From the IMG/VR virus record IMGVR_UViG_3300009148_000002, positions 1 through 64,000 of that record: a stretch of DNA of 64,000 nt. One strand, written 5' to 3'. Of this stretch, positions 823-59,695 are shown in pieces. The notes beneath the pieces are model-generated. The model had not been told where the DNA came from and did no database searches. It worked only from the letters and a program-made list of their open reading frames with translations. Source of the DNA: a virus (taxonomy: Duplodnaviria; Caudoviricetes). A program made the position numbers and the translations under genes. Each line of letters begins with the position of its first letter. Position 1 is the stretch's first letter.

Positions 823-871
823 GAGCGAAATATAGCTTGACGCGAAGTAAAACAACTGGCTTAATCGTCAA

Positions 872-1633
872 ATGAACAAAGAGCTTGAACTGATGCCGGC
901 GAATCGAAGTGCGCCAGTGGTCGCCATTGAGACTAAGAAACCACAGCGCAGCGTCGGCGACCTGCTAGAGATGGTGGTTGAGCGCGGACTAACAGCGGAG
1001 AATGTTGCTGCATTCAAAGACCTTGTTCAGCTACACCGCGAAGAAGTGAAGCTGAATGCCGAGCGGGAATTTGCATCCGCGTTTATTGTTTTGTTAAAGG
1101 AACTGCCAACGATTGTTGGTGTTAGGCCGATACCTGACAAGCATGGCAATGTGAAGTTCCGGTATGCCAACTTCGAGGACATAGACGAAATTGTGAGGCC
1201 GATTTGTCTAAGAAACGGGTTTAGCTACGCCTTCCGAGAAACCGGAATGGAAGCTGGCCGGGTAACGGTCACTATGACTTTGCAACACTCTGGAGGTCAC
1301 TCGCGGGAAATACCTTACACTGTTAGAATCGGATCAGGTCCACCGGGGGCCAACGAGTCTCAAGCGGACGGTTCTGGACACACCTACGGTAAGCGAGGGG
1401 CCATTGAGAGCGGGCTGTCGCTTCGCATCGTTGGAGCGCGTGAGGATGCCACGATGGAAGGTGATTTTATATCAAAAGAGCAAGCCTTTGAATTAGAGCG
1501 TCGGGTTGCTGAAACCAATTCCAACAAGGAAGCGTTCCTTAAATTCGCCGGCGCTGCTAAGTTTGAAGAAATCCGCGCTGGCAAATACGACACGCTTGAT
1601 TCATTTCTGCGCCGGAAAGAAAATCCAAAATGA
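872..1633 (+). CDS. erf: ERF-family ssDNA-annealing protein
   Basis: FRYANFEDIDEIVRPI, LQHSGGHS and GSGHTYGKRGAI match ERF core motifs; next to a YqaJ-like exonuclease. Confidence 0.8.
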   Translation: MNKELELMPANRSAPVVAIETKKPQRSVGDLLEMVVERGLTAENVAAFKDLVQLHREEVKLNAEREFASAFIVLLKELPTIVGVRPIPDKHGNVKFRYANFEDIDEIVRPICLRNGFSYAFRETGMEAGRVTVTMTLQHSGGHSREIPYTVRIGSGPPGANESQADGSGHTYGKRGAIESGLSLRIVGAREDATMEGDFISKEQAFELERRVAETNSNKEAFLKFAGAAKFEEIRAGKYDTLDSFLRRKENPK

Positions 1634-2319
1634 TTATCTCTCCGCACGCGCAAGGATCGGTCGAGTGGCAGCTAGCCCGCTCTGGCATTCCAACGGCTTC
1701 CGAATTCGACAACATCGTGACATCGAAAATGGTGTTGCGAGATAGTCAAATGCTGGAAACCTACTTGGCTCGCAAGCTGGCGGAAAAATGGCTTGGCGGG
1801 CCTGTGGCGAGTCTAAACGTGTTTGACGCCGACCAAGGTAAGATTTTAGAAGAAGAAGCTATTCCGTGGTACGAACTCGAATTTAGTGAAGCAATCCAGC
1901 GCGTTGGTCTAATCACGACCGATGACGGTCGCATTGGCTGCTCACCTGACGGGCTTCTTGGCGATAACTGTGGAGTAGAATTTAAGTGTCCGAAGATTGA
2001 AACGCATATCGGCTACTTGCTGGCCGGCGAGGTTCCTAAAGATTACCTGCCACAAGTGTATGGTGCGTTGCTGGTGACTGGTCGTCCATCGTGGAAGTTT
2101 GTCAGCTATCGCCGACGCTTGCCAGCGCTGGTGAAAGTCGTTGAGCGAGACGAGTCTATTCTAGCACGACTGCAAGACGCGCTGGATAAATTTCTGAAAA
2201 GGTTCGATGAGGGCTACGCCCGCCTCTGCGACATGAACGGTGGGCCACCTAAGCATTTAACGCCGCCGATTCCAAAACCCGAACAACACGAACCAAACGA
2301 CGACGTGCCGACTCCATGA
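1630..2319 (+). CDS. YqaJ/lambda-exonuclease-like viral recombinase
   Basis: QGSVEWQLARSGIPTASEF, GCSPDGL, VEFKCP, YLPQV motifs. Confidence 0.9.
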   Translation: MIISPHAQGSVEWQLARSGIPTASEFDNIVTSKMVLRDSQMLETYLARKLAEKWLGGPVASLNVFDADQGKILEEEAIPWYELEFSEAIQRVGLITTDDGRIGCSPDGLLGDNCGVEFKCPKIETHIGYLLAGEVPKDYLPQVYGALLVTGRPSWKFVSYRRRLPALVKVVERDESILARLQDALDKFLKRFDEGYARLCDMNGGPPKHLTPPIPKPEQHEPNDDVPTP

Positions 2320-2759
2320 ATATCGCCGACTCAATCAAGCAGGTTCGCCAGCGCATCGAGCGCGACGAAAAGATTATCGAAGCCCTGAACCTCATCGCCG
2401 AGCGGCTGCCATCGCTTGAATGTAGTCATTCGGTGCAAATAGCTGGCATTGACTTTGATCGTCCAACCCGCGAACAGACACTTGAAATCATTCGTGGTCT
2501 GGCCGCTGGCAAATGGGTGAAGTCGGTTAATTATGATGGCGACAAACTTAATTACGTGAACGACACGATGTTTGCTGGCTTGAGTCTTCGGATTTGGGCA
2601 TCACCGCCGCCACCGTCATGCCGGATTATTGAGATCGAGGAAGACGTTCCTGAACAAATCGTTGCCGCACATAAGAAAAAGGTGCGCAAGCTCGTTTGCA
2701 GCGAGGTCGGTCACGAGCCTCCAAAGCTAGTCGAGGAAATGGTTGAGGCTGCACCATGA
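2316..2759 (+). CDS. Hypothetical protein
   Basis: ATGA-coupled ORF in early operon. Confidence 0.7.
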   Translation: MNIADSIKQVRQRIERDEKIIEALNLIAERLPSLECSHSVQIAGIDFDRPTREQTLEIIRGLAAGKWVKSVNYDGDKLNYVNDTMFAGLSLRIWASPPPPSCRIIEIEEDVPEQIVAAHKKKVRKLVCSEVGHEPPKLVEEMVEAAP

Positions 2760-2932
2760 AAATGATTGTCAAAACCGGAAAGGTTATTTTCCAGAGCCAA
2801 GACGGGAAAATAGAAATCGAAGTCAAGGCGTCCAAAGATGGATTAGAAGTGACATCGGACTCGCAATTGTTCATGGGGCGACGCGGGAGAAATCACGTAA
2901 CAATCCAATGGCTTAACGGAACGGAAAAATGA
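2756..2932 (+). CDS. 58-aa hypothetical protein
   Basis: MKMIVKTGKVIFQSQDGK...; ATGA overlaps on both sides; not in ORF track. Confidence 0.65.
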   Translation: MKMIVKTGKVIFQSQDGKIEIEVKASKDGLEVTSDSQLFMGRRGRNHVTIQWLNGTEK

Positions 2933-3198
2933 AAATAGAAAACCAATTGCGGATAATGGCTCGCGAAGACAACTGCTGCGTGCGGCTAGCGGACGGCGAG
3001 AAAATATTCATTGGCTCAATCACGATTGGCCAAGATGAGTGCGGCGATTTTATTAACGCTTTGTCCAAGTGTCTGTACAAATTAAAGAAGGCAAAACAAG
3101 CTGTTCCAGCAGACGCTTCTGGCGCGACGATTCCGGCAGATTCAACACCGCCAGAATTGTTGCAGGCAGCGTTGGTTGAAAAAGCGAATCTCACATGA
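2929..3198 (+). CDS. Hypothetical protein
   Basis: ATGA-coupled ORF. Confidence 0.65.
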   Translation: MKIENQLRIMAREDNCCVRLADGEKIFIGSITIGQDECGDFINALSKCLYKLKKAKQAVPADASGATIPADSTPPELLQAALVEKANLT

Positions 3199-3521
3199 CC
3201 CTGCTCGAATTCTTGGACAGGCTGCCACCGAGAGCGTGCCGATTGCTGGCGCGGGTGAATGGCCGTGCGATGACGGCTAGGCAGATTGGCAAGGCTGGCG
3301 GGTTGCATCCGTCCACGGTGCATATCCTATCCGAGATGGACAGCTTTGCACACGTTACTATAAGCACAGCGTCAAAGTATCTCGTCGGCTGCGGGATCGA
3401 CGTTTTTCATCTGCGTCGCCAGTGGGAGTTCATCAAGCGGCAGGAGAAAAACAAGCGCGGTATGGCGCACATTAGGCGAGCGAAGCGGCCTAGTTATTTC
3501 AAGAGATTGGCTAAAACATGA
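3195..3521 (+). CDS. Basic, possibly HTH DNA-binding protein
   Basis: MTARQIGKAGGLHPSTVHIL is HTH-like; directly upstream of the integrase. Confidence 0.5.
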   Translation: MTLLEFLDRLPPRACRLLARVNGRAMTARQIGKAGGLHPSTVHILSEMDSFAHVTISTASKYLVGCGIDVFHLRRQWEFIKRQEKNKRGMAHIRRAKRPSYFKRLAKT

Positions 3522-4465
3522 ACGAGCTAGTCCCATACGTCTCACCGCCGCAGTTGGCCAAAGCGAACACGCTGGCGAACCGCGTCGGTGAATACCTCAA
3601 AGACTTGCAGGATCGTAAGTGTTCTGAGTTCTCGGTTCGCAACATGAGGGTTGTGTTGGAACACTTCGAGTTGTTCTGTGCGGGCCGGCACGTTATTCCG
3701 CAAACGGTTCGCGAATGGTGCGACGCGGTTGGCACGTCTGGCCGAAAGCCTGGCACGGTTGACTTGTATCAGCGGCACTTGAAGTCATTCTTGATTTGGA
3801 TGGACAGGCGCGACTATATCACGGGCTTGCGTGAGCTAGTGCGCGTGTTCAATCGAGTCACAATTCCGAAACGCCCGGTGACAACTATCACGCTGGAAGA
3901 ATACGAAAGGCTACGCGATGCTTCCGTTGGCACACCGATGTATTACCTTGTTGTGATGGGTTATTGGACCGGCTTGCGTGGCGTTGGTGCCTGCCTACTC
4001 CAGTGGGTCAATGTCGATTTAGAGCGTTTTCACATTCGGGTTGTTGAACGGAAGGTTTCCAAGTGGGGCATCACATCGACCCCGCCGATCCCGCCCGGTG
4101 GTGAGCTTCATGCGATGTTGGTTGAGATGCAGAGGAATCCATCTGACGAGTGGCCTGGCCGCGCCTACGTGCACCCGTACTGGGCCAATGAATACATGAA
4201 GGGCTACTTGCCTGATTCTAAATTTAGCGCCCTGTGTAAAAAGGTTGGAGTAAAGAAAAGCTATCACGATTTTCGGCGCGGTTATACGTCAACGCTTCTC
4301 GACGCTGGCGTATCGCCGGCTCTGGTTGCTAAAATGACTGGACATTCAAACATTCAGGAATTGATGACGTATTACAAAGCAGACGAAGCCGCCATGCACG
4401 CGGCCATGAACTCAGCTTTCGCGAAACAGAAACAACAAACAGGAAGCGTCACGCTAACACAATGA
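3518..4465 (+). CDS. Tyrosine recombinase (phage integrase-like)
   Basis: TGLRG (R), HDFRR (HxxR), GHSN (H) and LMTYY (Y); lacks the IntI-specific insertion. Confidence 0.9.
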   Translation: MNELVPYVSPPQLAKANTLANRVGEYLKDLQDRKCSEFSVRNMRVVLEHFELFCAGRHVIPQTVREWCDAVGTSGRKPGTVDLYQRHLKSFLIWMDRRDYITGLRELVRVFNRVTIPKRPVTTITLEEYERLRDASVGTPMYYLVVMGYWTGLRGVGACLLQWVNVDLERFHIRVVERKVSKWGITSTPPIPPGGELHAMLVEMQRNPSDEWPGRAYVHPYWANEYMKGYLPDSKFSALCKKVGVKKSYHDFRRGYTSTLLDAGVSPALVAKMTGHSNIQELMTYYKADEAAMHAAMNSAFAKQKQQTGSVTLTQ

Positions 4466-4671
4466 GCGCAAAAGCAATGACTGCACAACAGGAAAAGCAT
4501 ATCGTGGATTTATTAAATATCGTGCAACTCTACAGCCATCTCGGCAAACAAATCGAGCTTGGTCAGTGGTCCGGAGCGGTGGTGATCTCCGAGGCGCTGT
4601 CGCAGAACATCCGTCAGCAGGTTGTGGTGCAATTCGAGAACGAGGAAACCGAGATTTCGATGCCGGCATGA
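4462..4671 (+). CDS. Hypothetical protein
   Basis: ATGA-coupled ORF. Confidence 0.6.
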   Translation: MSAKAMTAQQEKHIVDLLNIVQLYSHLGKQIELGQWSGAVVISEALSQNIRQQVVVQFENEETEISMPA

Positions 4672-5039
4672 AACCAACCACCTACAACCCGAAGATCGTG
4701 ATTGCTTACTTCAGGGCGTGCGGCGTGCCGTTGCCGCTGGTTGAATACCCGTTTAACAAGCCAGAAAGCCGTCACAGGTTTGATTTTGCGTGGCCATTTT
4801 CTTCTCCCACGCCGCTCGCCTTGGAAATCAACGGAGCGATTCACGGGATCGGAAAGCCGTGCCCTGTTTGCCATCGTCGCCAGACGGGCGGGCATACATC
4901 TGGAACAGGCGCGAGGCGAGACATGGACAAAATGAACTTCGCAGCGGCCAAGGGCTACAGGGTTATCTACTGCGAACCAAGAGAACTGATGACTCAGAAA
5001 ACCGTTGACCTAATCAAGCGGTGCCTTGGGATTGGATAA
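4668..5039 (+). CDS. PD-(D/E)xK nuclease, Vsr/DUF559-like
   Basis: RHRFDFAWP...LALEING...RDMDKMNFAAAKGYRVI; start moved to ATG 4668; stop lies in the attC R' core. Confidence 0.75.
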   Translation: MKPTTYNPKIVIAYFRACGVPLPLVEYPFNKPESRHRFDFAWPFSSPTPLALEINGAIHGIGKPCPVCHRRQTGGHTSGTGARRDMDKMNFAAAKGYRVIYCEPRELMTQKTVDLIKRCLGIG

Positions 5040-5166
5040 CGACGAGGCCAGCAATGCGTCTGGTCGAACCTAAAACAACCGTGAATATGCTGACGAATCT
5101 CGAACAAGAAAAGAGCCAGTCCGAAGCCAATCGTAAAGACGCATTGGCTGCGCCGACTGGTTCGGA
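5034..5166 (-). other. attC site (133 bp)
   Basis: Minus strand: TCCGAAC-CAGTC-GGC[G]CAG[C]CAATGCGTCT...AGACGCATTGCTGGCC-TCGTC-GTTATCC; brackets are extrahelical bases. Confidence 0.85.
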
Positions 5167-5458
5167 AAAAACGTGGACAGACGAACAACTCAACTGGCTG
5201 CTCCGAGAAATCGAACTCAACGCCAAGCTCAAAGAGGCTGATAACAAAAAGCTCCTATGGCTGGCGATGAACACCGCCCCGTGGAAGTCGCTCGATGTGA
5301 TGGGCGTCGAAGCGGAAATCTTTGGTGAGATAGAAAACCGCCTCTATCCAGAATACGACGGCGAAACTGTGACGTTCGAGGAATGGGGATGGCGAACACC
5401 AACCGGCGACATACGATATTTGCCGAACGTCCGCATGAGCGAAGGCGCGGACAAGTGA
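5054..5458 (+). CDS. Cassette-borne hypothetical protein, antisense to its attC
   Basis: ATG lies inside attC 5034-5166 and the stop inside attC 5422-5515; cassette cores GTTCGGAAAAA (5160) and ATTTGCCGAAC (5418) match 9/11 as inverted repeats. Confidence 0.7.
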   Translation: MRLVEPKTTVNMLTNLEQEKSQSEANRKDALAAPTGSEKTWTDEQLNWLLREIELNAKLKEADNKKLLWLAMNTAPWKSLDVMGVEAEIFGEIENRLYPEYDGETVTFEEWGWRTPTGDIRYLPNVRMSEGADK

Positions 5459-5515
5459 AGGTCGAATTTGCGAGAGGCGTGCGCCCGCGCCTTTCGCTCC
5501 ATGCGGTGGTTGGGC
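5422..5515 (-). other. attC site (94 bp)
   Basis: Minus strand: GCCCAAC-CACCGCAT[G]GAGCGAA[A]GGCGCGG...CCGCGCCTTCGCTCATGCGGAC-GTTCGGC. Confidence 0.9.
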
Positions 5516-5540
5516 GGCACGGTCGAACTGAAAACACACT

Positions 5541-5699
5541 ATGAAAACAGGACAATGCTACTGGCGCTTTCGAGGCGAGAAAGCCTACCGCTATGGCTAC
5601 GCAACCGAAGCCGGACAAGGACTCTATCGCATGGGACTGTGGAACGGCGACACAAGCCACGGGCCAATCGTTGACCCGCACGACATCGAGGTGCGCTAG
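5541..5699 (+). CDS. 52-aa cassette-borne protein (first cassette, antisense)
   Basis: MKTGQCYWRFRGEKAYRYG...IEVR fills the cassette bounded by the perfect 11-bp inverted repeat GTTGGGCGGCA (5509) / TGCCGCCCAAC (5700). Confidence 0.7.
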   Translation: MKTGQCYWRFRGEKAYRYGYATEAGQGLYRMGLWNGDTSHGPIVDPHDIEVR

Positions 5700-5703
5700 T
5701 GCC

Positions 5704-5720
5704 GCCCAACAAGGATTATC
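5704..5720 (-). other. attI-like site
   Basis: Minus strand GATAATCCTT-GTTGGGC, 18 bp from the intI start; no attC hairpin follows; position is canonical for attI. Confidence 0.7.
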
Positions 5721-5738
5721 AAGCTCCAGTCGTGTAAT

Positions 5739-6692
5739 ATGAAAATCACAATCGCCATCAGTAATATGCGCGACATTATCAGGCGCAAGCATTTGTCTAT
5801 TGAGACTGAGCGTTCTTACTGCCAGTGGCTTGATAGGTTCTCTCGTTTTGTGGTAGAGCGGTGCCGCGACGGTAAGCCTGAACAAAAGATGGAAGCTTTT
5901 CTGACCCAACTCGCCAGACAGGATGTTTCGGCATCTACTCAAAACCAAGCTTTCTGCGCATTGCTATTTTTCTACAGAGAAGTGCTTAAATTGGAAATCG
6001 GAAAGGTGGATTCGTTGCGCGCTAAGAAGCCTGTGCATCTGCGTTATGCGCCGGAGGTTCACGATGTTAGGGCTTTGATCGCTAGGATTCAGGACGTAGG
6101 CGGATACCCGACGCGGCTGATCGTGAAACTGATTTACGGGTGCGGGATGCGCGTCACTGAGCCGCTGAATCTGCGCGTGAAGGATGTTCTCTTGTCCGAG
6201 TCGAAGCTGATTTTGCGCGGTGCCAAGGGTGGAAAGGACAGGTTTGTTTCAATCCCGTGTTCACTGGCCGGCGAGCTAGCGGCGCAACTCACTTTGGCGA
6301 AGTCCATCGGCGAACGCGACCGCTTGAATCGTCTGCCAGTCGCCTTGCCGGGCTTGCTGGTAACGAAATATCCGCATTGGCAATTCTTGGAAAAGTGGGC
6401 ATGGCTCTTTCCGGCGCACACGTCTTGCGTCCACCCGCGCACGGGAGTCACCGTGAGGTGGCGATGCCATGAGGCGAATGTGCAACGGTGCGTGCGCTCC
6501 GCCGCAAGGCCGATGGGCCTCGACATCACGCCACACCACCTGCGCCACGCCTACGCGACGCATTGCTTGAATGGCGGACAGAATCCGCGCGCGATTCAAC
6601 AAGCAATGGGACACTCACAACTGGAGACTACGATGGGGTATCTACACACAGAAGCATTAAGTGTTAGGAGTCCTATTGACGCAATATTATGA
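5739..6692 (+). CDS. intI: Integron integrase
   Basis: IIRRKHLSIETERSYCQW N-terminus; catalytic R, K, HxxR, H, Y (GMRVTE, AKGGKDR, HHLRH, GHS, GY); IntI-specific insertion ALPGLLVTKYP...WAWLFPA...HPRTG...HEANVQR. Confidence 0.93.
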   Translation: MKITIAISNMRDIIRRKHLSIETERSYCQWLDRFSRFVVERCRDGKPEQKMEAFLTQLARQDVSASTQNQAFCALLFFYREVLKLEIGKVDSLRAKKPVHLRYAPEVHDVRALIARIQDVGGYPTRLIVKLIYGCGMRVTEPLNLRVKDVLLSESKLILRGAKGGKDRFVSIPCSLAGELAAQLTLAKSIGERDRLNRLPVALPGLLVTKYPHWQFLEKWAWLFPAHTSCVHPRTGVTVRWRCHEANVQRCVRSAARPMGLDITPHHLRHAYATHCLNGGQNPRAIQQAMGHSQLETTMGYLHTEALSVRSPIDAIL

Positions 6693-7060
6693 ACGACGAA
6701 TCGACAACCCAGCCTCCAGTAGCGCCAAAGCCAAGGCGTCCACGCCAGCCAAAACACATCGTCATCGACGACACGGCGACACTCGAAAAATACGACGTGA
6801 TTCAGACATTCGGTACGAACGCGGGAATGCTTGGAATCGTCGTCGAGGTGCGCGAGTCCGACGTGAAGTGTTTTCATAAAACTCTGTCAGGCGAAGGCAA
6901 TCACTTCACCGTCGCGAAGGATAAATGCAAGAAGATCGGCACGAGCTTCATCCGCTGGAAGTCAATCGACAGCGGGCAGAAGCCATCAATTGGCCAGAGC
7001 AATGGCCAGCCGAGGATGCTTGCAAAAGCGCCAGCCTTCCCGCCCGATGTGGTTTCGTAG
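6689..7060 (+). CDS. Hypothetical protein
   Basis: ATGA-coupled to intI; C-terminus may run through a decayed attC. Confidence 0.7.
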   Translation: MNDESTTQPPVAPKPRRPRQPKHIVIDDTATLEKYDVIQTFGTNAGMLGIVVEVRESDVKCFHKTLSGEGNHFTVAKDKCKKIGTSFIRWKSIDSGQKPSIGQSNGQPRMLAKAPAFPPDVVS

Positions 7061-7065
7061 CCAAT

Positions 7066-7524
7066 ATGGAAAACAACGATAAGGCGCTGAGGTTGAAAAT
7101 TGCGGAGCTAGAGGCCGCTCGCTCTCAAGCTCTTGAACTGCTGGAGCAGCTATTACCAATAACATGGTCGGAAGATTGGGATGCTGATTTCGTGCGTGAC
7201 AAGCTGGAATGCGCCATCAGGTTTTGTGGTGGCATGGTTGAGAAGCCGAACATAACTGCCAGTCGCAAGGCGTCCGCAACTGCCAAGCGAAGCGGCAGTT
7301 GCGCTCCAGTGAATGGTTCTGAGGCGTCAAAGTGGAGATCCTGTTCTCGCTGGCCTGTCACTCTCGGCTTCCTCGAAAACCAACTGACGACCGACACGCA
7401 CGATACCCGCGAGCAAGCGGACGCCGTGTGCCAAATGCTCAAACGCGATGGCCTCGGCGGTGAAGGCCGAATCTTTCCAGAAGAAACATGGATTGAGGAG
7501 GTCAAGCCTCAGAAAAATTCTTAA
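7066..7524 (+). CDS. Hypothetical protein, probable in-frame fusion across an attC
   Basis: Start reassigned to ATG 7066; PNITASRK...PVNGS is encoded by attC 7245-7322. Confidence 0.65.
   Translation: MENNDKALRLKIAELEAARSQALELLEQLLPITWSEDWDADFVRDKLECAIRFCGGMVEKPNITASRKASATAKRSGSCAPVNGSEASKWRSCSRWPVTLGFLENQLTTDTHDTREQADAVCQMLKRDGLGGEGRIFPEETWIEEVKPQKNS
7245..7322 (-). other. Degenerate attC site
   Basis: Minus strand TCAGAAC-CATTC-ACT[G]GAGCGCAACTGCC...GGCAGTTGCG...AGT-TAT-GTTCGGC; L'-side pairing is imperfect. Confidence 0.6.
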
Positions 7525-7526
7525 AC
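7509..7526 (-). other. attI-like site with mutated core
   Basis: Plus strand AAA-AATTC-TTAAAC; GCCTCAGAAA (7506) matches the inverse of GTTCTGAGGC (7316) at 9/10. Confidence 0.5.
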
Positions 7527-7600
7527 CGACTCTGTAGCTTATCCATGACCACGGTTCAGACCATGAAAACCCCGCGCAAAGAAAAAGCCATCCGAATCAC

Positions 7601-7690
7601 CTGCAACCGCAGAAGTCAGCGAGGCCGGGCCGCTGACGCAACCAAAACATGAAGGCGAATCCCGGCCTTCGCTGGACTGAATTGTTCGAC
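7601..7690 (-). other. attC site (90 bp)
   Basis: Minus strand GTCGAAC-AATTC-AGT[C]CAGCGA[A]GGCCGGG...CCCGGCCTCGCTGACT-TCTGCG-GTTGCAG. Confidence 0.85.
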
Positions 7691-7692
7691 TT

Positions 7693-7917
7693 ATGGCTAT
7701 ACTGAAAGGCATCGGAAAACCCGGATCAGGGGCATACCTGCCTGTGAAACTGTATCGTGAATGGATCGCCAAAGTGCGCCGTCACGATCAACTCGAAGCG
7801 GCGCTTGAACGCATCGCAAAGGGTGAAACCGAAGTGCCCGGCCTCGCGCCGGAGTTTTACGGCCACGCCAAAGCCATCGCCGAGAAGGCTCTACGTGTTA
7901 AGTCGAACAATGATTAA
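7693..7917 (+). CDS. 74-aa cassette-borne protein (antisense)
   Basis: Bounded by the perfect 10-bp inverted repeat GTTCGACTTA (7684) / TAAGTCGAAC (7899). Confidence 0.7.
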   Translation: MAILKGIGKPGSGAYLPVKLYREWIAKVRRHDQLEAALERIAKGETEVPGLAPEFYGHAKAIAEKALRVKSNND

Positions 7918-7919
7918 AC
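7902..7919 (-). other. attI-like site
   Basis: Plus strand AAC-AATGA-TTAAAC has the same spacing as AAC-AAGGA-TTATC next to intI. Confidence 0.55.
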
Positions 7920-7980
7920 GAACGCCTGTTCGTTTATTTAAGAAAACAATGCCAACCTTTAGACATGCGGGTGATTTGAC

Positions 7981-8766
7981 GTGAGCGCAGCCTTATCTCC
8001 AATCACGACCAACATTCTTCGCGCTTCCTACGAGCACAAGAAGTTCGCCTTCGGCAACCCGCAGGCGACACAGATCATGTGCCTGATTGGAAGCTGCCGC
8101 ATTGTGCCAATGCTGAACTTCATGCGCGTTTACAACGCGATGCACGGACATCCGTTTGAACTGCTATGTTTCAATCCCGTTGAAATGTGGGACGGTCCAG
8201 GGTGTGAAGTATCGGCTGGCGTGAACAGGATTCTGCAAGGCTTCAAATTCGGCAAGGTGGATTACCTCGTCTGTGAGCACGTCCAGTACTGCGGCGTGCT
8301 AAACACCGTGCGATCCTCAGCGGAGAACGTCTTTGACTCGCTCGCGTGCTCGCCAGGCATGGAGATTCGTTTGCCCAACTGGAATAATCTTCACGTGTTC
8401 GATGCCGAGACGGCCCTGAACGACAAGACGGGTTACGCCAAGCTGGGTCACGCCGAGCGCGTTGCATATCTGCGAGAACAGACGGCCATCCATAAGGCTC
8501 GGTTCCTGTCGCATTGCCGAGAAAGCAGCTTCCAGGAGCTTGAGTCATGGGTTGAGGAACGCTGGCTGACGACGCGGTTGGGTTGGTCGAGTTCTCATCC
8601 GAGCCATCCGCTGATCTGGAAGATGATTGAATGCGTGGCTGGAAAGATTGGCTTGACAATCTCTACTGAAATAGCCAACCATCCACTGTGCGCAATCGAC
8701 ATCTACAAGTCCACGGGCATACCATTGACTAGTGTTGACTACGAATCGAATGGCTGGAAATTCTGA
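7981..8766 (+). CDS. Hypothetical polysaccharide-modifying protein (WcbI-like?)
   Basis: IGSCRIVP N-terminal motif; opens the glycan-enzyme cluster. Confidence 0.4.
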   Translation: MSAALSPITTNILRASYEHKKFAFGNPQATQIMCLIGSCRIVPMLNFMRVYNAMHGHPFELLCFNPVEMWDGPGCEVSAGVNRILQGFKFGKVDYLVCEHVQYCGVLNTVRSSAENVFDSLACSPGMEIRLPNWNNLHVFDAETALNDKTGYAKLGHAERVAYLREQTAIHKARFLSHCRESSFQELESWVEERWLTTRLGWSSSHPSHPLIWKMIECVAGKIGLTISTEIANHPLCAIDIYKSTGIPLTSVDYESNGWKF

Positions 8767-8768
8767 AT

Positions 8769-9083
8769 ATGAATACATGCGATAAGGCGGCGGTCTGCGA
8801 GGAATTGTTAGGCGGATTCGTCGCCACACAAAGGCAGTATCCAAGCGGCCTAGAATATCTGGAAGTGACGCATGGACAAACCAGAATCGGAACGTGCTGC
8901 ATCCAACCTTCTGGTGGCTTCATTGTCATGGGCAAGCGCAAGCCCGTGCCGACGATACGTGCGGCTGTGCTGCAAATGATCGGCGACGAACTGAACAAGT
9001 GCCGCAAGGAAGAAATGCGGTGGCGGAAAAAGCTGACGCACTTCACATCCACTAATCCTCCAAACAAACGAACACCAACATGA
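8769..9083 (+). CDS. Hypothetical protein
   Basis: Operonic ORF. Confidence 0.6.
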   Translation: MNTCDKAAVCEELLGGFVATQRQYPSGLEYLEVTHGQTRIGTCCIQPSGGFIVMGKRKPVPTIRAAVLQMIGDELNKCRKEEMRWRKKLTHFTSTNPPNKRTPT

Positions 9084-9568
9084 TCGAAACGTTAAATTAT
9101 GGCAGCCACCTGCCAGCGCTAATGGCCTGCACGGCTGTATGCGGTGGCCCAGTATTGGAGATCGGGTGCGGAAATTTTTCGACGCCGTGCCTTCACTCGC
9201 TGTGCGCCGTTCTTGGACTTCCTCTCGTCACGACCGAGTTTGATGATAGCTGGCGCAATCAGTTTACGAGCTACATCACCCCGACGCACCAAGTCTTGAA
9301 GCAAACGGACGCACTGTTGAAGGAGTTAGCCACACGGCAATGGGGACTCGTGCTTGTGGATGACCAACCTCAGACTCGAATTGATCGGCTCAATATGTTC
9401 TTCGATTCAGCGCGGTTCGTCCTATTCCATGATTTTAACTTCCCCGACTACAAGGAGAATCTGGAGACGTGGGTTTCGGCCCGCCAATGCTACCATCGGG
9501 TTTACACGCGGGTCGGCCCTTGGACGCTCGGCGTGTCCAAAACCCACCCGATACCAGAGTTCGATTAA
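9080..9568 (+). CDS. Class I SAM-dependent methyltransferase-like protein
   Basis: VLEIGCG motif I; LVLVDD; LFHD. Confidence 0.7.
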   Translation: MIETLNYGSHLPALMACTAVCGGPVLEIGCGNFSTPCLHSLCAVLGLPLVTTEFDDSWRNQFTSYITPTHQVLKQTDALLKELATRQWGLVLVDDQPQTRIDRLNMFFDSARFVLFHDFNFPDYKENLETWVSARQCYHRVYTRVGPWTLGVSKTHPIPEFD

Positions 9569-9571
9569 CCC

Positions 9572-10036
9572 ATGAGTAAAACACTCCCCATTTTAAACGG
9601 TTCATTCGCTATAATCGACGATGATGATTTCGAGCGAGCGATCAAGTTTAGGTGGTATCTTGATAGCAAGGGGTATGCAAAGCGGAACATCAGAAGGAGC
9701 GATGGATATAAGACTATTCAATTTCTCAGCAGGTTCATTATGGATGCCGCTGTCGGTATTCAAGTCGATCACATCAACGGAAACAAGTTAGACAACCGCA
9801 AATCCGAACTGCGATTATGCACGCATCAGCAAAACAACTGAAATAAAGGAAAACAGCGTAATAATAAATCTGGATTCAAAGGCGTAACGTGGAGCAGGCG
9901 GGCGTCGAAGTGGAAGGCTACAATACAGCTTAATGGTAAAAGTATTCATCTCGGCTATTTCACCGACATCCTAAAAGCTGCCGCCGCTTACGCCGCCGCA
10001 TCCCGAAAATACCACGGAGAATTTGCGAGAACTTAA
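9572..10036 (+). pseudogene. HNH-AP2 homing endonuclease with in-frame TGA
   Basis: VDHINGNKLDNRKSELR HNH, TGA at 9839-9841, then the same frame gives an AP2 domain (SGFKGVTW...IHLGYF...AAAAY...YHGEFA) to TAA 10036. Confidence 0.85.
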
Positions 10037-10039
10037 AAT

Positions 10040-10810
10040 ATGAACATCGACAGAGTTTTACTGGTGTGGGATGGGAACGAATTTTATCGTGGATTTTATG
10101 AGATGCACCAAAGGCTCTGGCCAAGGCTCGGCATCAAGACCGGCCTCGTCTTCGTCTCCAACGGCAGCAACGCACACGCCATTCCAAAGACGGGCGACGT
10201 GCGCGTAGTCGAGGATCGCAGCAAGGTCCCGTTTACGCCACCTCCAGGAAGAAACTGGCGTGCGACTATGGGGATAATTCACGGGCCGACGCTGTTCCCC
10301 GGCGAGGTTGTCATGGTCACAGGTTTAGACCAATTTCCCGCGAGCCGAATGTTCATCGACGCAGTGGCGGAAGTCCCTGACAACGAACTGGCGACCGCTA
10401 TAGGAAGCCGCGACCACGTTACCACAAACCATATTTTAGCCCATCACAACGTATGGTCGAAGATCATGGCTCCTGCTCCGATGGACTTCACCGAGCTAAT
10501 CGAATGGGCATGGGCGAAGGGCCTGAACATTGATGGCCACCGGGACGCCAACCAAAAGCCAATCGCAATTGGATGGGGAATAGATGAAGTGCTATTCGCG
10601 CAACTTGTGCGCGAGTCGGGCGTCACCGTCCGAACACTGTTCAAAGACCCTTGGGAGCAATGGCTGAACCGGGTGCTCGGAATCACACAGATAGTGCCAG
10701 ACCCAAAGAAGCTGGCCGAAGGATTTTACTCGGAGCTTCACATCAGACTGCCCATGACGGAACTAGACAGGAAAACATTCAACACGTTGCTGGAAATTCT
10801 CGAACCATGA
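10040..10810 (+). CDS. Putative glycosyltransferase-like protein
   Basis: TGLDQFP (DxD-like) and WGIDEVLF; cluster context. Confidence 0.45.
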   Translation: MNIDRVLLVWDGNEFYRGFYEMHQRLWPRLGIKTGLVFVSNGSNAHAIPKTGDVRVVEDRSKVPFTPPPGRNWRATMGIIHGPTLFPGEVVMVTGLDQFPASRMFIDAVAEVPDNELATAIGSRDHVTTNHILAHHNVWSKIMAPAPMDFTELIEWAWAKGLNIDGHRDANQKPIAIGWGIDEVLFAQLVRESGVTVRTLFKDPWEQWLNRVLGITQIVPDPKKLAEGFYSELHIRLPMTELDRKTFNTLLEILEP

Positions 10811-11001
10811 AAGTGAAAAGCGATTGCTGTCCAAAATGCGGAAAGCAAATGAACTTGGTAATGATGGCTCTCAAGCAACCCGATGGATGTGTTGACGTAT
10901 TGGAATCCTCATCGGTTGGCGCAGTCACATATTGTACCGAATGCGGCACACAATTGATGATAAACGACGAGAAGTCATTCGCAATTGTCGAATACCTGTG
11001 A
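10807..11001 (+). CDS. Zn-ribbon protein
   Basis: CPKC...CTEC; ATGA/GTGA overlaps. Confidence 0.65.
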   Translation: MKVKSDCCPKCGKQMNLVMMALKQPDGCVDVLESSSVGAVTYCTECGTQLMINDEKSFAIVEYL

Positions 11002-11792
11002 GCAACGTTGGCACCATCGTTTACATTCCTCCGCCACGTTACGGCCACGGTGAGGCGTTCCTGACAAATCTCAGGGCGTGGAAAACGAAATATCCACTTG
11101 TCACGTTCTCAGACCACGCCGAATGGACACCGGATCGCGTCATCCAAAGCCCTGATCTAATCAAAACCAAGCAGCGGCCTTGGGCTGTGAACAACTTCGT
11201 GTTTCTGATGGCGCTGTCGATTGCGGAAGACAGTGGATTCACGGATTTCCTATATCTTGAAGAAGATTGCCGCGTGCATGGCCACGAATGGGACGAGAGA
11301 ATAATTGGTGAATATCGTCGCTGGCCGCAAGCCGTTGTGGGCGGCAGTCCGGTGTGCTGGAATTCTATGTCAGCCGGCCCCGTGATGCTCGCTGGGTTTC
11401 AAATCTACGCGGCGAGTTACGTCAGGAAATGCAAACTACCTGTGCCGATATACGGCCTTCAAATTCCAAACCGACCGCGAGTGGAGCGGTTCACACTTTA
11501 CCCAAACGGAGCGATTGCCGTTTACAACGTCGCGTTTTTGAGAGACTTGTTCAAACAAGGCAGCATGGCTAAGCAAGCTTTAGATCGTGGCGCGTTTGAT
11601 ATGGAAGTGGGTTGGGAGTTGGTAAACAAATTCGGACTTGGGTTGTTTAACAAATGCGCGTGGCTGTCTTCGGCTTTTTCGGGCTATGGTGACAACGTGC
11701 TCAATTACAAACAGCGCTGCGCACGGCTGATTGACGGGACGTTTGCCGCCGTGCATCAGATTAAAACTGATGATACATTGCTGCCCGCATGA
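10998..11792 (+). CDS. Putative GT-A-fold glycosyltransferase
   Basis: FLYLEEDCRV DxD-like motif; GTG start at 10998. Confidence 0.55.
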   Translation: MSNVGTIVYIPPPRYGHGEAFLTNLRAWKTKYPLVTFSDHAEWTPDRVIQSPDLIKTKQRPWAVNNFVFLMALSIAEDSGFTDFLYLEEDCRVHGHEWDERIIGEYRRWPQAVVGGSPVCWNSMSAGPVMLAGFQIYAASYVRKCKLPVPIYGLQIPNRPRVERFTLYPNGAIAVYNVAFLRDLFKQGSMAKQALDRGAFDMEVGWELVNKFGLGLFNKCAWLSSAFSGYGDNVLNYKQRCARLIDGTFAAVHQIKTDDTLLPA

Positions 11793-12442
11793 AAACCAAA
11801 CTTCTAAACAACGGCATCATGGTTTTGGACGCTGACTCTCACATTAGTAAGTGGGTAGAGGAAACCGGCAAGTTGGACCACGACGAAGGTATAAAGAAAA
11901 TCTGTTCGCTTATCAAGCCGGGAGACGTTGTGATTGATGTTGGAGCAAACATTGGTAGTCATACAACGGCCTATTTGAAGGCTGTGGGAGATGGCTTAGT
12001 TTACGCAATTGAACCAAACAAAGACCCTCTGGCATGTCTGATTCATAATTGCCCACGGGCTGTAATTATTTCCGGCGCGGCGATGGATTTTTTCGGTCTG
12101 ATTCGGCTTCAGAGGTCCGTTAATGTGGGAGCAACATGCTTAGATAGTCTGCCGGGTTATGACGCAATCTGCTTTCCGATTTCTGATGTTGTCCATGCCT
12201 CTAAAGTAGCCCTGATTAAATTTGACGTTGAGGGTTGCGAAAGGTTCGCCATCCGTGGGGCTTCTCGCATTATCAGTCGCGACCATCCAGTAATGATCGT
12301 CGAGGTTGCGCCCGGACATTTGGCTAGGTATGGCGTAACTACTGAAGCCCTATTGAGGACCATCGAAGATTTAGGATACAAAACAGAACCGCTGCACGCT
12401 TTCGACCCACATCAATACGACCTGCTCTGCACACCAAAATGA
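11789..12442 (+). CDS. FkbM-family methyltransferase
   Basis: VIDVGANIGSHT, AIEPN, LIKFDVEGCE. Confidence 0.92.
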   Translation: MKTKLLNNGIMVLDADSHISKWVEETGKLDHDEGIKKICSLIKPGDVVIDVGANIGSHTTAYLKAVGDGLVYAIEPNKDPLACLIHNCPRAVIISGAAMDFFGLIRLQRSVNVGATCLDSLPGYDAICFPISDVVHASKVALIKFDVEGCERFAIRGASRIISRDHPVMIVEVAPGHLARYGVTTEALLRTIEDLGYKTEPLHAFDPHQYDLLCTPK

Positions 12443-13176
12443 AAACCTCCATCCTGTGCGTTTCGTATCGCGGCGATTTCGACTGGCTGCCGTATTTGCT
12501 GAAGTCATATCGCCAATTCTGCTCAGGGTTTCACGAGTTTGTGATGTCCGTGCCGCAAGCCGATGAATCGCTGTTGAGGCAAATGGACCTAGCTGGCGTG
12601 CGCGTAGTTGTGCGCCATCCAAAGATGACTGGCTATTTCGACCAGCAACTAGAGAAGTGCTGCGCCGATCTCTTGTGTCCAGAGGCCGATTGCGTTTGCC
12701 ATGTGGATTCCGATTGTGTATTTCTGCGTCCAACTACGCCGGATTCTTTATTCGTGGCCAACAAGCCGTTCTTGCTCATCACTCCATTCGCCGAGCTTGG
12801 AAGCGCCGTGCCGTGGAAACCAAGCACCGAACTGGCTCTTGGAATTCCGGTCGAGTTTGAAGGAATGCGTCGGCATGGGTTAACTTATTGGAGAGACACC
12901 TATCAATTGCTGAGAGAGAGAATCGAGACACTGCACGGCGTTGGATTGGACACGTATCTATCGACAAAGCGCAATTCGGCGGACCACACCAAGCTGTTCT
13001 CTGAGTTCAATTGCCTGACAGGGGCGGCGTTTGCGTGGCAGCACGACAAGTATCACTGGATCGACACAAGTAAAGAGACGTTTCCGCCGCCGATTGTTCG
13101 GCAGTTCTGGTCGCACCATAGGGCCAGTCATCCAGACGTTCAAAAAGAGATCGCTGACATTTTGAAAACGGCATAA
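12439..13176 (+). CDS. Putative glycosyltransferase (DUF6492-like)
   Basis: CHVDSDCVF DxD motif; GYFDQQLEK; FSEFN. Confidence 0.6.
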   Translation: MKTSILCVSYRGDFDWLPYLLKSYRQFCSGFHEFVMSVPQADESLLRQMDLAGVRVVVRHPKMTGYFDQQLEKCCADLLCPEADCVCHVDSDCVFLRPTTPDSLFVANKPFLLITPFAELGSAVPWKPSTELALGIPVEFEGMRRHGLTYWRDTYQLLRERIETLHGVGLDTYLSTKRNSADHTKLFSEFNCLTGAAFAWQHDKYHWIDTSKETFPPPIVRQFWSHHRASHPDVQKEIADILKTA

Positions 13177-13352
13177 TTTATGAACAAAAACCTAATACTG
13201 GTTGGAGTTCGGAAGTGGGCAGATGACGCAAGTTTGCCCAGCCCTGCAACGTGGGTGAGAAATCAAGACATTGCGCGAGTCGGCGGCGCTCGGCCAGCTT
13301 TGTCTTGAATAATGAATCGCCGGGCGTGCGTTGCCACGCCCGGCAAACCTTT

Positions 13353-13730
13353 ATGAGCGCGAACAACGGCAACAGCAAAGCACCAAACTTCCAAGCCCTG
13401 CAACATTTCGTCGGGCAGTTGGTCGAGCAGCAAAAGAAAAGTCAGTTTTCGCTTGGGCCGATTCAGCAGCCGAAGCCGCTCATCATTCGCAAGTGTTTGG
13501 TCTGCGGATCGGGCGACAAGCTTCGCCGAACGAAGACTCCGAACGGTTCTGTCTTTCTGTGTCCGGGTTGCCGGACGGATTTGGAATCTGGCGGCACAGC
13601 GTTCGTGTGTCGAGATGGCCGCTCGCTAATGGCCAAGTCCGGCGCTCCGATTAAGGACAGCATGATCGGCAAGATAGTCGAGGTTTCGGTGGCCACGATG
13701 GATGAGCTTGTAAAGAAAGCTGCAATATGA
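13353..13730 (+). CDS. Zn-finger hypothetical protein
   Basis: CLVC...CPGC; start at ATG 13353. Confidence 0.6.
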   Translation: MSANNGNSKAPNFQALQHFVGQLVEQQKKSQFSLGPIQQPKPLIIRKCLVCGSGDKLRRTKTPNGSVFLCPGCRTDLESGGTAFVCRDGRSLMAKSGAPIKDSMIGKIVEVSVATMDELVKKAAI

Positions 13731-48407: not shown

Positions 48408-48713
48408 TTAACTGGTCACGGACACGGAAGTTGTCTGAATCTTTATCGTTCCAGCCGTCATCTCACTCAGCACCTCAAGGCAGATTTTGAGACGGGATGA
48501 CGCGATGAGTTTTTGTGCCGAAGATGTCGGAATATTCTGCTCTTGCAGCGTCTTGATCGGATCGGTCAACGCTAGATGAGACGCCTCGTGGTTTAGGCGC
48601 ACGATTTCCGACTCCAACACAGCCACAAGCTCGGCTTTTGATGGATGATTGAGCCATTGGTTGAGTGCAATGGCCCGACCGCTATCCAACGGTTCTGAGG
48701 TGACGGAAATCAT
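48408..48713 (-). CDS. Hypothetical protein
   Basis: Start at ATG 48713 (TGATG overlap). Confidence 0.55.
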   Translation of the reverse strand: MISVTSEPLDSGRAIALNQWLNHPSKAELVAVLESEIVRLNHEASHLALTDPIKTLQEQNIPTSSAQKLIASSRLKICLEVLSEMTAGTIKIQTTSVSVTS

Positions 48714-52362: not shown

Positions 52363-53871
52363 ATGCCCCTGCATCCCGACGGCTACTGGATACCCAATCT
52401 CTCACCCAAGCAGATAGCCATTCAAAACAACCGAGCGCGTTATCAGTTGGTTTCTGGCCCGCGTTTGAGCGGCAAGTCGTGGGGTGTTGAGCACGCCGTC
52501 GTGAAGCACCTGTGGATTACGAAGAATGCTCGCATGGGCGCGTTCGCTCGCACGATCAAGAGTGCAAAAGTGGGTGGTTCTTACGACGATCTAACAAAGC
52601 TCATCATTCCAGAGTGGCTATCTGCGAATTTAACCGGCGTGAACGCGAGCATCCGCTTCGAGTACTCGATTCCACCAAAACAGATGGGTGATACGCGGAC
52701 GAACTACTTCAAAATACGCAATTATTGGGGCGGCGAATCTGAGTTCTACCTTTTCTCGTTGGATTACGACGACGACATTGAAGAAAAGGTGAAAAACACG
52801 CGGTTCTCCGGCTTCTGGTTTATCGAGCTAACGAACTTCGACAAGCGGGAAGTGTTTTCCGCAACCGTCCAGCAGTTGCGTATGCCTGGATTGCCGTGGA
52901 AAGAGCACCTGTGGATAGCGGACACGAATCCCGACTACATACTCGGAGAGGATAGCTGGATTTACAAGCTGTTCTACGAAAAACAGGGCTACGATCCGGT
53001 GGTGGACAAAGAGGAAATCGAAAATCTGAGCGTCATCGAAGTGATGATTGACGATAACCCGTTCCTTGAGCCACAGGCCATCAGGAGCCTCAAGGCTAAC
53101 TACGCGTACAGCCCGGAAAAGACGGCGGCTTACATCTTTGGCAAGTGGGTTAAGGGAATGCGCGATGGACATTTCTCAGATGTGCTCTTGCCGAACATCC
53201 ATTTTCAAGGTGACGTGAGCAGCAACGATTCAGCGAAGTGGCAAATCATCGTGCCCACAGAGCAGACTATGGAACTAATGACAGGTTGGGACTTGGGCGA
53301 TGTCAACCACTCGGCACACATCGCTCAGAAGCGCCCGATTGATAACGACGAATACGCTTACGATTTCATCGACGAACTGTTCTGCATTGATCGGCAAGTC
53401 AGCATTCGAGAATTCACCGAGGCGTTCTTGGAGCGCATGGATCATTGGGAAAAATTCATGCGCGAGGCGTTTGGGCGAACAGTGTTTCGATGGCGGCACT
53501 GGTCTGACACGTCGGCGTTCAGCTACAAAAGCGCGGTTGGCGGCGATGAAGAAAAGATCGTGCGCAATGTTTCAAAAGGGCGGATCACTCTGTTGGGAAT
53601 CGACAAGCGAAGTGTCACTGGCCGCGTGGATCAAGTGAGACGGCTGCTACACGAGCAGCGCATATTTGTGTCTGCCAACCTAACGCACACAACCGTCATG
53701 CTGAAGACTCTCTACAAAGGCAAAAGCAAGTTGGACTTTATTCTGCCGGCCACGCTGAAGCATTCGTTTGACTCGTTCAGCTACCTGCTTCGCGGCGAGG
53801 AACCTCACGATCTTGAGCGCGGCCTTCCTCAGACGGAGCAGCCGGCGAGGTTGGTGCTGGTGCCGGCGTAA
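52363..53871 (+). CDS. terL: Terminase large subunit
   Basis: Walker A GPRLSGKS, Walker B FWFIELT, coupling motif DTNPD, nuclease GWDLG and KHSFDSFSY. Confidence 0.9.
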   Translation: MPLHPDGYWIPNLSPKQIAIQNNRARYQLVSGPRLSGKSWGVEHAVVKHLWITKNARMGAFARTIKSAKVGGSYDDLTKLIIPEWLSANLTGVNASIRFEYSIPPKQMGDTRTNYFKIRNYWGGESEFYLFSLDYDDDIEEKVKNTRFSGFWFIELTNFDKREVFSATVQQLRMPGLPWKEHLWIADTNPDYILGEDSWIYKLFYEKQGYDPVVDKEEIENLSVIEVMIDDNPFLEPQAIRSLKANYAYSPEKTAAYIFGKWVKGMRDGHFSDVLLPNIHFQGDVSSNDSAKWQIIVPTEQTMELMTGWDLGDVNHSAHIAQKRPIDNDEYAYDFIDELFCIDRQVSIREFTEAFLERMDHWEKFMREAFGRTVFRWRHWSDTSAFSYKSAVGGDEEKIVRNVSKGRITLLGIDKRSVTGRVDQVRRLLHEQRIFVSANLTHTTVMLKTLYKGKSKLDFILPATLKHSFDSFSYLLRGEEPHDLERGLPQTEQPARLVLVPA

Positions 53872-59353: not shown

Positions 59354-59422
59354 CGGTTTTATATGCAGACAGTTACAGAGAGTTCTTTTTCATTTTTACG
59401 GGCTGTTGGTGGGCTTGTCGTT

Positions 59423-59659
59423 CTACAGCACCCGCTCGCTGTGTTTGATTTCGACGCATCGGATTTTGGGTTTTTCCAGCCAGTCCTTAAAGAACCATCT
59501 GGCATATTCAAGTGCCTGCGATTGGTTGTCGCGCTGCCCGACGAGGCATTCCCATTTGGCGTTCGGTTTCTGCCACTCGACCGCGTATGCTGTAGAACAC
59601 TTCATGGAGCGAACGGCGACCCGCGCCGTTCGAGAGTTGGTCTTGGATTTCTTGCTCAT
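59423..59659 (-). CDS. Cassette-borne hypothetical protein (antisense to its attC)
   Basis: ATG lies in the attC loop; cassette cores GTTCTACAGCA (59420) / TGCTGTAGAAC (59588) are a perfect 11-bp inverted repeat. Confidence 0.7.
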   Translation of the reverse strand: MSKKSKTNSRTARVAVRSMKCSTAYAVEWQKPNAKWECLVGQRDNQSQALEYARWFFKDWLEKPKIRCVEIKHSERVL

Positions 59660-59695
59660 ACATTTTTCTCGCCGTCGCTCATGGCGGCGTTGTAA
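59592..59695 (+). other. attC site (104 bp)
   Basis: GTAGAAC-ACTTC-ATG[G]AGCGA[A]CGGCGA...TCGCCGTCGCTCAT-GGCGGC-GTTGTAA. Confidence 0.88.

Follow-up and report, generated by a model that had tools for sequence, protein, structure and literature searches.

Bacteria gather and reshuffle their accessory genes mainly by means of integrons, the textbook platform of which combines one integrase (IntI) with one insertion site; an integron ordinarily has a single attI. What sets the integron integrases apart from the Xer proteins is an additional segment, I2. Several relevant variants have been described. The analysis of 10,705 phage genomes yielded three complete integrons, all in temperate phages, while integrase-less clusters of attC sites (CALINs) were found in virulent phages, such as TJE1 (Qi et al. 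2023, PMC9892861). The same study described the cryptic Shewanella prophage M16-3, in which a complete integron sits together with an array devoid of integrase, both with the same attI at their head; the attI copies are near-identical, and the IntI protein is 95% identical to that of Shewanella oneidensis MR-1. In class 1 integrons, the attI copies or remnants occurring within arrays are recombination-proficient (Gonzales Machuca et al. 2026, PMC12901181), and genomic sites other than att sites can receive cassettes as well (Loot et al., bioRxiv 10.1101/2022.09.11.507474). Here, we report the analysis of a 64-kb stretch of DNA (hereafter, the window), corresponding to the first 64 kb of the 74,992-bp virus record IMGVR_UViG_3300009148_000002 (Duplodnaviria; Caudoviricetes), which is rated complete. 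The window contains an integron comprising a single integrase gene (intI), the neighbouring insertion site (attI-1) with its primary array and, downstream of intI, a full-length second attI-type site (attI-3) and a degenerate attI-like site (site 2). We estimate at about three in four the probability that the region 7245-7940 consists of two cassettes, X and Y, each inserted by the phage's own IntI at separate attI-type sites downstream of intI.

This integron is a variant of the published phage integrons and extra attI sites, for which precedents exist (Qi et al. 2023). Similarly to classical integrons, such as the Vibrio cholerae chromosomal integron (VchIntIA, 2A3V), it has an integrase with an I2 region, an attI located between intI and an array reading away from it, and attC sites of the R''-L''-loop-L'-R' type with bulges on the intI-proximal arm and a crossover at G|TT. 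Unlike classical integrons, it resides in a phage genome, combines two or more attI-type sites with a solitary insertion, and carries antisense cassette genes that begin in one attC and often stop in the next site; furthermore, cassette body and hairpin are not one unit, and IntI falls just under the family cut-off. As in M16-3, an integrase-less second attI heads its own cassettes in a phage-derived element, but viral-contig collections were the only source of the present family, the attI copies of which are diverged and lie in direct order around intI within 2.2 kb, a layout found in three lineages. Delta-attI-type cassettes and the attI1-aadB-attI1 arrangement (PMC12901181) also have attI sites or remnants flanking cassettes within arrays, and site 2 likewise lies inside the array of attI-3; however, those systems are clinical class 1 and class 2 integrons with resistance genes and tested recombination, whereas the phage sites are predicted from sequence and site 2 is apparently inactivated. 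The solitary cassettes inserted at attG sites (Loot et al.) share with the window an insertion away from attI and an expression from neighbouring promoters, which fits the cassette at 59420-59695; attG sites are unlike att sites, whereas attI-3 is a full attI-type site. Finally, CALINs are also arrays of attC cassettes in phage genomes, but they have neither an integrase nor a recognised attI, whereas the phage integron has an integrase, its attI and extra attI copies.

The intI gene (5739-6692, + strand) encodes an integron-type tyrosine recombinase of 317 amino acids (aa), with a SAM-like and a catalytic tyrosine-recombinase domain. The best family of IntI is TIGR02249 (247 bits; cut-off 265), and its family membership is further shown by an end-to-end, ungapped alignment with VchIntIA (E 2e-40) that includes the integron-specific I2 region, i.e., the additional domain expected of an integron integrase. 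No second TIGR02249 match occurs in the whole 75-kb genome. An integrase 55-81% identical to IntI is encoded by 26 viral contigs, which share with the window no other gene of the 3518-11792 region, and no intI neighbour is common to these 26 loci. Within the window intI itself, a box of the AAC type lies at 6480-6486 (codon 247). Two contigs, L026 (629-862) and L027 (6001-6195), retain no more of intI than its last quarter (starting at about residue 240-250), with attC cassettes directly before it, and the integrase gene may have been cut there by cassette insertion.

For the attC sites, we built a covariance model from the hairpins of 15 relatives, leaving the window out. These hairpins align as R''-spacer-L''-stem ... 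stem-L'-spacer-R', the intI-proximal arm having two bulged positions. Of the alignment cells, 82.8% are paired, as compared with 66.7% after shuffling and less than 42% with the partners slid, and compensatory changes occur in eight of the nine pairs of the central helix (helix 2). The sites are thus imperfect hairpins, in which R and L boxes as well as extrahelical bases can be recognised. Applied to the window, the model detected four sites at E 1e-8 to 1e-11. Two of them form the primary array, which consists of two cassettes upstream of intI (5034-5515) with cores matching the cassettes' far ends: the attC at 5422-5515 (- strand; 49.6 bits; core 12/12 at 5509/5699) and the attC at 5034-5166 (- strand; 41.1 bits; core 9/10 at 5160/5419). 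A crude scan for AAC...GTT hairpins and a ranking by constrained minimum free energy, in which only 5422-5515 stood out from the background, were replaced by the comparative models. In the relatives, the model found 80 attC matches, nearly all of them upstream of intI and on the opposite strand, in arrays of up to 14. Weak matches far from the integron, at 48564-48654 (- strand) and 1348-1436 (+ strand), scored 17 and 16 bits (E 0.02-0.04), and the last 11 kb of the genome contain no attC.

The position of the crossover is given by the cores. At 23 of the 24 attI junctions of the family, the 9-12 nucleotides (nt) preceding AA|C have their perfect reverse complement at a distance of 130-850 nt upstream, while a downstream control returned nothing beyond a 7-mer. 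These junctions include both second attI copies of the relatives, and each inverted core closes a hairpin. In 56 cassettes, the outer four core bases are complementary at 3.84 of 4 positions across the cassette versus 1.66 of 4 within one attC; the exchange therefore bears the G|TT signature, the last six R' bases going with the next cassette. This rule is obeyed in 50 of the 56 cassettes. Because such a core complementarity fits an exchange at G|TT, the system is, as judged from these comparisons, an integron in its geometry and recombination signature. In the window, five perfect inverted repeats of at least 12 nt, with arms no more than 400 nt apart, occur (1.7 ± 1.1 in shuffles), three of them at 5.5-7.9 kb.

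The attI sites were identified in a similar way. The 35-50 nt tract directly upstream of the intI start codon is conserved in all relatives, and left of its AAC triplet the sequences diverge completely. A profile of this tract, made from 19 relatives with the window left out, was used to search the whole 75-kb genome with filters off (150 kb of strand). It gave only two significant matches, at 7903-7936 (E 3e-5) and 5704-5741 (E 3e-3), the next one having an E-value of 1.9. The match at 5704-5741 (+ strand) is attI-1, the intI-proximal insertion site, with the crossover after 5709 (AA|C); the tract ends at AA|C and the attCs lie upstream on the opposite strand, as in an attI beside intI with cassettes reading away from it. 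The other match, attI-3 (7903-7940, + strand), is the best one genome-wide over 34 positions, outscores the resident attI-1, and has no integrase gene behind it. In addition to the profile match, attI-3 has the AAC box, a core running to AA|C, and internal inverted boxes that form a small hairpin at 7915-7936. Hence, the single integrase is accompanied not by a single attI but by two profile-significant attI sites and one degenerate site.

A sigma-70-like hexamer pair lies within attI-1 (5743-5715, minus strand) and points into the array, where the classical cassette promoter sits; the number of matches is no higher than expected from shuffles. That the repeated site is a repeated sigma-70 promoter is not supported, because neither extra site has a promoter-like match on the + strand. 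By eye, the attI boxes were also compared with SOS boxes, a reading that was dropped for its misfit in spacing.

The earlier note on this DNA had claimed two further cassettes downstream of intI, with inverted cores, an attC on one side and an attI-like site on the other. Both core pairs are present, one perfect over 13 nt in cassette Y (7681-7693/7899-7911) and the other matching at 87% over 15 nt in cassette X (7311-7325/7506-7520). The two other elements hold in full for Y, whereas X has only a degenerate attC (11.4 bits) and a site that is recognisable only when anchored at the junction (P 0-0.006) and that is devoid of the C of AAC.

In cassette Y, the intact attC-Y (7601-7690, - strand; 46.7 bits, E 1e-10; hairpin z -2.9) is followed by a body (7684-7908, + strand) with a 74-aa gene (7693-7917), the stop codon of which is supplied by attI-3. 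The core is perfect over 10 nt (13 nt counting the three flanking bases) and ends at the AA|C of attI-3: the predicted crossover falls at 7907/7908, and the core ends at 7908. The same body occurs in a metagenome contig (L036, 1726-1958) with 90.6% identity, between attCs of 40.8 and 33 bits, and this homology begins at the left core and ends at the crossover. Fifteen of the 20 substitutions between the two copies fall on third codon positions of the + frame, and all minus frames carry stops. Taken as a block, attC-Y, the body and attI-3 are intact and plausibly still usable. A perfect 12-nt inverted repeat (7619-7630/7836-7847) also links the attC-Y stem to the inside of the Y body, and its body half is found in L036 as well, despite the different attC.

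In cassette X, the body (7316-7514, + strand) has a perfect 9-nt inverted core, which recurs as a perfect 9-mer ending at 7514, the next base being A instead of C. The decayed attC-X (7245-7322, - strand) keeps a near-consensus R''-L'' arm, and its L'-R' arm is disrupted, with a local duplication; its E-value is 0.012 within 6693-7600, and its DNA fold has a z of -1.7. The window sequence 7311-7514 is 91% identical to positions 4288-4491 of contig L034, where attCs of 29.5 and 40.8 bits flank it and the array is located some 0.7 kb upstream of an intI; the homology stops exactly after the AA of the crossover, and the substitutions are mostly at third positions of the + frame. A 152-aa open reading frame (ORF; 7066-7524, + strand) spans the decayed attC-X and the X body and stops in site 2, and its homologues P0002 and P0003 share with it only residues ~84-148, i.e., the cassette body. 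A search of the viral_contigs collection found no close relative of the two cassette proteins.

Site 2 (7515-7549, + strand) was analysed by taking the 34 nt to the right of the junction, as fixed by the core, and aligning them from that junction with 23 attI flanks. Its anchored similarity is significant against random genomic positions (P 7e-4), composition-preserving shuffles (P 0-0.003) and gene starts (P 0-0.006). The same scoring disposes of the alternative, raised in the earlier note, that the extra sites are truncated attCs (L'-R' halves): site 2 and attI-3 have mean anchored scores of -6.3 and -3.6 against attC arms, versus -0.1 and +4.5 against attI flanks, so that both are nearer to attI flanks than to the R'-proximal arms of 77 attCs, while control attC arms show the reverse. 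Site 2 looks dead. Since the hairpin lacks one arm and the docking site lacks the crossover C, block X is best read as a fossil, i.e., an old insertion in which both would have decayed and the cassette gene would have become fused into the 152-aa ORF.

We propose that cassettes X and Y entered the phage genome independently, at several insertion points or as attI-cassette blocks, as the earlier note had suggested and as supported by the following observations. First, both bodies reside in ordinary attC arrays of other contigs, where they are ~91% identical and have their breakpoints at the cores; they are therefore mobile cassettes. Second, in the terminal attCs of the three arrays (5034, 7245 and 7601) the R' core has no partner further on, and thus each docking site has its own terminal cassette; a core-partner search found no further cassette left of attC-X, attC-Y or the attC at 5034-5166. 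Third, the extra sites resemble attI and not attC. Fourth, the layout recurs in two other lineages, L005/L006 (two cassettes) and L017 (one cassette), where a second attI copy lies 0.8-1.8 kb downstream of intI in the same orientation, belongs to the same length subtype as the resident attI and is ~80% identical to it (hand count). A backbone gene that directly follows intI in contig L023 has its homologue after the second attI in L017, and thus the block in between behaves as an insertion or a deletion.

The genes to the right of attI-3 (7981-10810; 261, 162 and 256 aa) form a module that is conserved, with a shuffled order, in five viral contigs (L028-L032). These five contigs have no integron parts, and neither attI nor attC occurs there upstream of the relatives of the gene next to attI-3; the extra attI therefore belongs to the integron and not to the gene on its right.

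In the proposed mechanism, which is that of classical integrons, a circular cassette would fold one strand of its attC, and IntI would exchange this folded strand with the double-stranded attI, at G|TT on the cassette strand and AA|C on the + strand, replication then fixing the insertion. The expected outcome is a cassette flanked by inverted cores, its hairpin at the end away from intI and what remains of attI at the other end. The cassette genes, which are on the + strand as are intI and the early operon, would presumably be expressed by read-through. The comparisons establish the sites, the families to which they belong, the crossover position and the mobility of both bodies; we infer that the resident IntI acted at the extra sites and that attI-3 is still active.

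The orientation of the genes departs from the usual one. In 50 of 57 cassettes, the longest ORF is co-directional with intI, i.e., antisense relative to the usual arrangement in integrons, and the third-position substitutions back the + frames; the order of a gene followed by its own attC, with a promoter at the intI/attI end, is not observed. In the window, the cassette genes at 5054-5458, 5541-5699, 7066-7524 and 7693-7917 all point in the direction of intI. Cassette genes often begin in one attC and end in the next attC or attI, the ends of the proteins thereby being set by the neighbour.

Several points weigh against an insertion of both cassettes by the resident IntI. The integrase is 18 bits under the curated integron-integrase cut-off. 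Attributing both attI-1 and attI-3 to one IntI assumes that it recognises the two sites, which are only ~55-60% alike (hand alignment). The C of AAC missing from site 2 is invariant in the aligned relatives, the unanchored attI profile did not detect site 2, and the window-wide E-value of attC-X (0.87) is not significant. The empty-site alleles that the earlier note had proposed to look for were searched in related contigs and did not turn up: neither an empty nor an otherwise filled attI-3 was found in the viral_contigs or metagenome contigs, and the four assemblies with an identical IntI have the same gene order, with no alternative occupancy. The attI-3 pattern was absent from viral_contigs, and its sole metagenome match (L037) was discarded as an unrelated AT-rich contig. 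Lastly, gene and attC are not inherited as one cassette. In all five matches of bodies between loci, the homology does not extend through the neighbouring attC, and attC-only matches (92-97% identical) occur between loci with unrelated adjacent bodies, so that bodies and attCs do not travel together, which the textbook gene-plus-attC unit does not predict.

Instances of this apparently separate reassortment are window 7601-7908 versus L036 1644-1952, and L003 2047-2178, which equals L009 3870-4001; another element is shared by L004 (3485-3612), L009 (4540-4667) and L016 (4801-4927). The shared bodies (~67-91% identity) have unrelated attCs, with breakpoints at both R boxes. The attC region of cassette X still shows faint homology at the protein level; in the case of cassette Y, the two attCs differ and both are intact. 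The separate inheritance of bodies and attCs hints at an exchange at both R boxes. We regard as doubtful, though worth stating, the more elaborate scheme of a multi-site platform native to the phages, in which intI would be bracketed by direct attI copies, the integrase and array would be movable as a unit, and recombination at both R boxes would let bodies and hairpins reassort separately.

The extra sites could have originated by three routes, namely, attI duplication, loss of intI from tandem integrons, or attI x attI integration. The second route leads to the competing explanation that survives best, in which the window would hold the relics of three tandem integrons with deleted intI genes, the orphan attI sites and their last cassettes being history and not working platforms. 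It is consistent with an attI-like similarity that reaches the position of the relatives' intI start codon, where site 2 keeps an ATG, with the truncated intI genes beside cassettes in L026 and L027, and with the precedent of M16-3, where the same attI heads both a complete integron and an array without integrase (PMC9892861). However, no remnant of intI lies behind attI-3 or site 2, the genome having a single TIGR02249 match. There is no support for the 35-aa ORF following site 2 as a relic of the intI 5' end: its N-terminus is no more IntI-like than others (P 0.14-0.22), and only words of 8-10 nt match in the DNA. Moreover, this explanation requires, in each of three lineages, a deletion ending at the start codon, and the better fit of attI-3 than attI-1 to the family profile points to a continued constraint. 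We therefore consider such relics unlikely.

The third route would make the integrase module mobile. A circle comprising an attI, intI and a short array would have been integrated by attI x attI recombination into an attI already present in the phage, so that attI copies in direct orientation (5704 and 7903) would now bracket a 2.2-kb unit capable of renewed excision. Direct attI copies do surround intI in the window, L005/L006 and L017; in the L023/L017 comparison the block behaves as an insertion or a deletion; the 26 loci have no common intI neighbour; the relatives of the gene right of attI-3 in L028-L032 have no attI or attC upstream; and the recombination of an attI1-flanked cassette by IntI1 has been reported (PMC12901181). 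Yet neither a circle junction nor an allele devoid of intI ([array]-attI-7981 gene) was found in the contigs searched, the large divergence of the window's two attI copies makes the event an old one, and site 2 is left unaccounted for. We hold this possibility to be a little less probable still.

An insertion at ordinary secondary (attG-like) sites, with the likeness to attI arising by chance or from AT-richness, is very improbable. Cassette insertion by integron integrases outside att sites does occur (bioRxiv 10.1101/2022.09.11.507474), the cassette at 59420-59695 has no attI-like flank, and site 2 is weak and devoid of the C. Against this, attI-3 is the top match in the 150 kb of strand searched (34 positions, E 3e-5), the likeness of site 2 survives the composition-preserving and gene-start controls, and the same layout occurs in two other lineages with a second site of the resident attI's subtype. 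As for the absence of any recombination system, the repeats and hairpins being chance or coding features of small phage genes, it can be dismissed: both cassettes are inside or flush with ORFs and inverted repeats of 9-10 nt are common by chance, but models trained elsewhere match at E 1e-10, the stems covary, 23 of 24 junctions and 50 of 56 cassettes follow the core rule, and homology elsewhere ends precisely at the cores.

The solitary cassette at 59420-59695 (+ strand), located 52 kb from intI, is in the opposite orientation, with an 11-nt inverted core at 59420/59588. Its attC (59592-59695; 37.3 bits) is on the other strand than the remaining window attCs. No attI profile match lies beside it, and its left flank is more like an attC L'-spacer. 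It is a third, non-attI insertion point and the only cassette fitting the attG type, which has no resemblance to att sites beyond GTT, while attI-3 does not fit it.

The integron is part of a phage genome, as indicated by the large terminase gene (52363-53871), the virion and tail-fibre proteins, the ERF/YqaJ recombination module at the left end, and the four independent assemblies, which are ~75-kb contigs with a like gene order. The genes of the 870-13700 region are all on the + strand. They include, in the same operon and 1.3 kb upstream of intI, a second, unrelated tyrosine recombinase (3518-4465; 315 aa), which does not belong to the integron type and for which viral_contigs yielded no close relative. 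A blastn comparison of the window region 5000-9000 with deposited phages gave no match.

Together, these data describe an integron family all members of which were retrieved from viral contigs, the arrays of the relatives comprising up to 14 or more cassettes. Here, one integrase is associated with extra conserved insertion sites placed so that cassettes enter the early operon of the phage. The intact-to-decayed natural series offers a view of the way in which cassettes turn into ordinary, fixed genes or into parts of larger, fused ORFs, and attI-1, attI-3, the dead site 2 and attC-Y are concrete substrates for asking what makes an attI. If the extra sites are active, phages could load accessory genes at several points of one transcription unit, and the integrase module may also move between phages.

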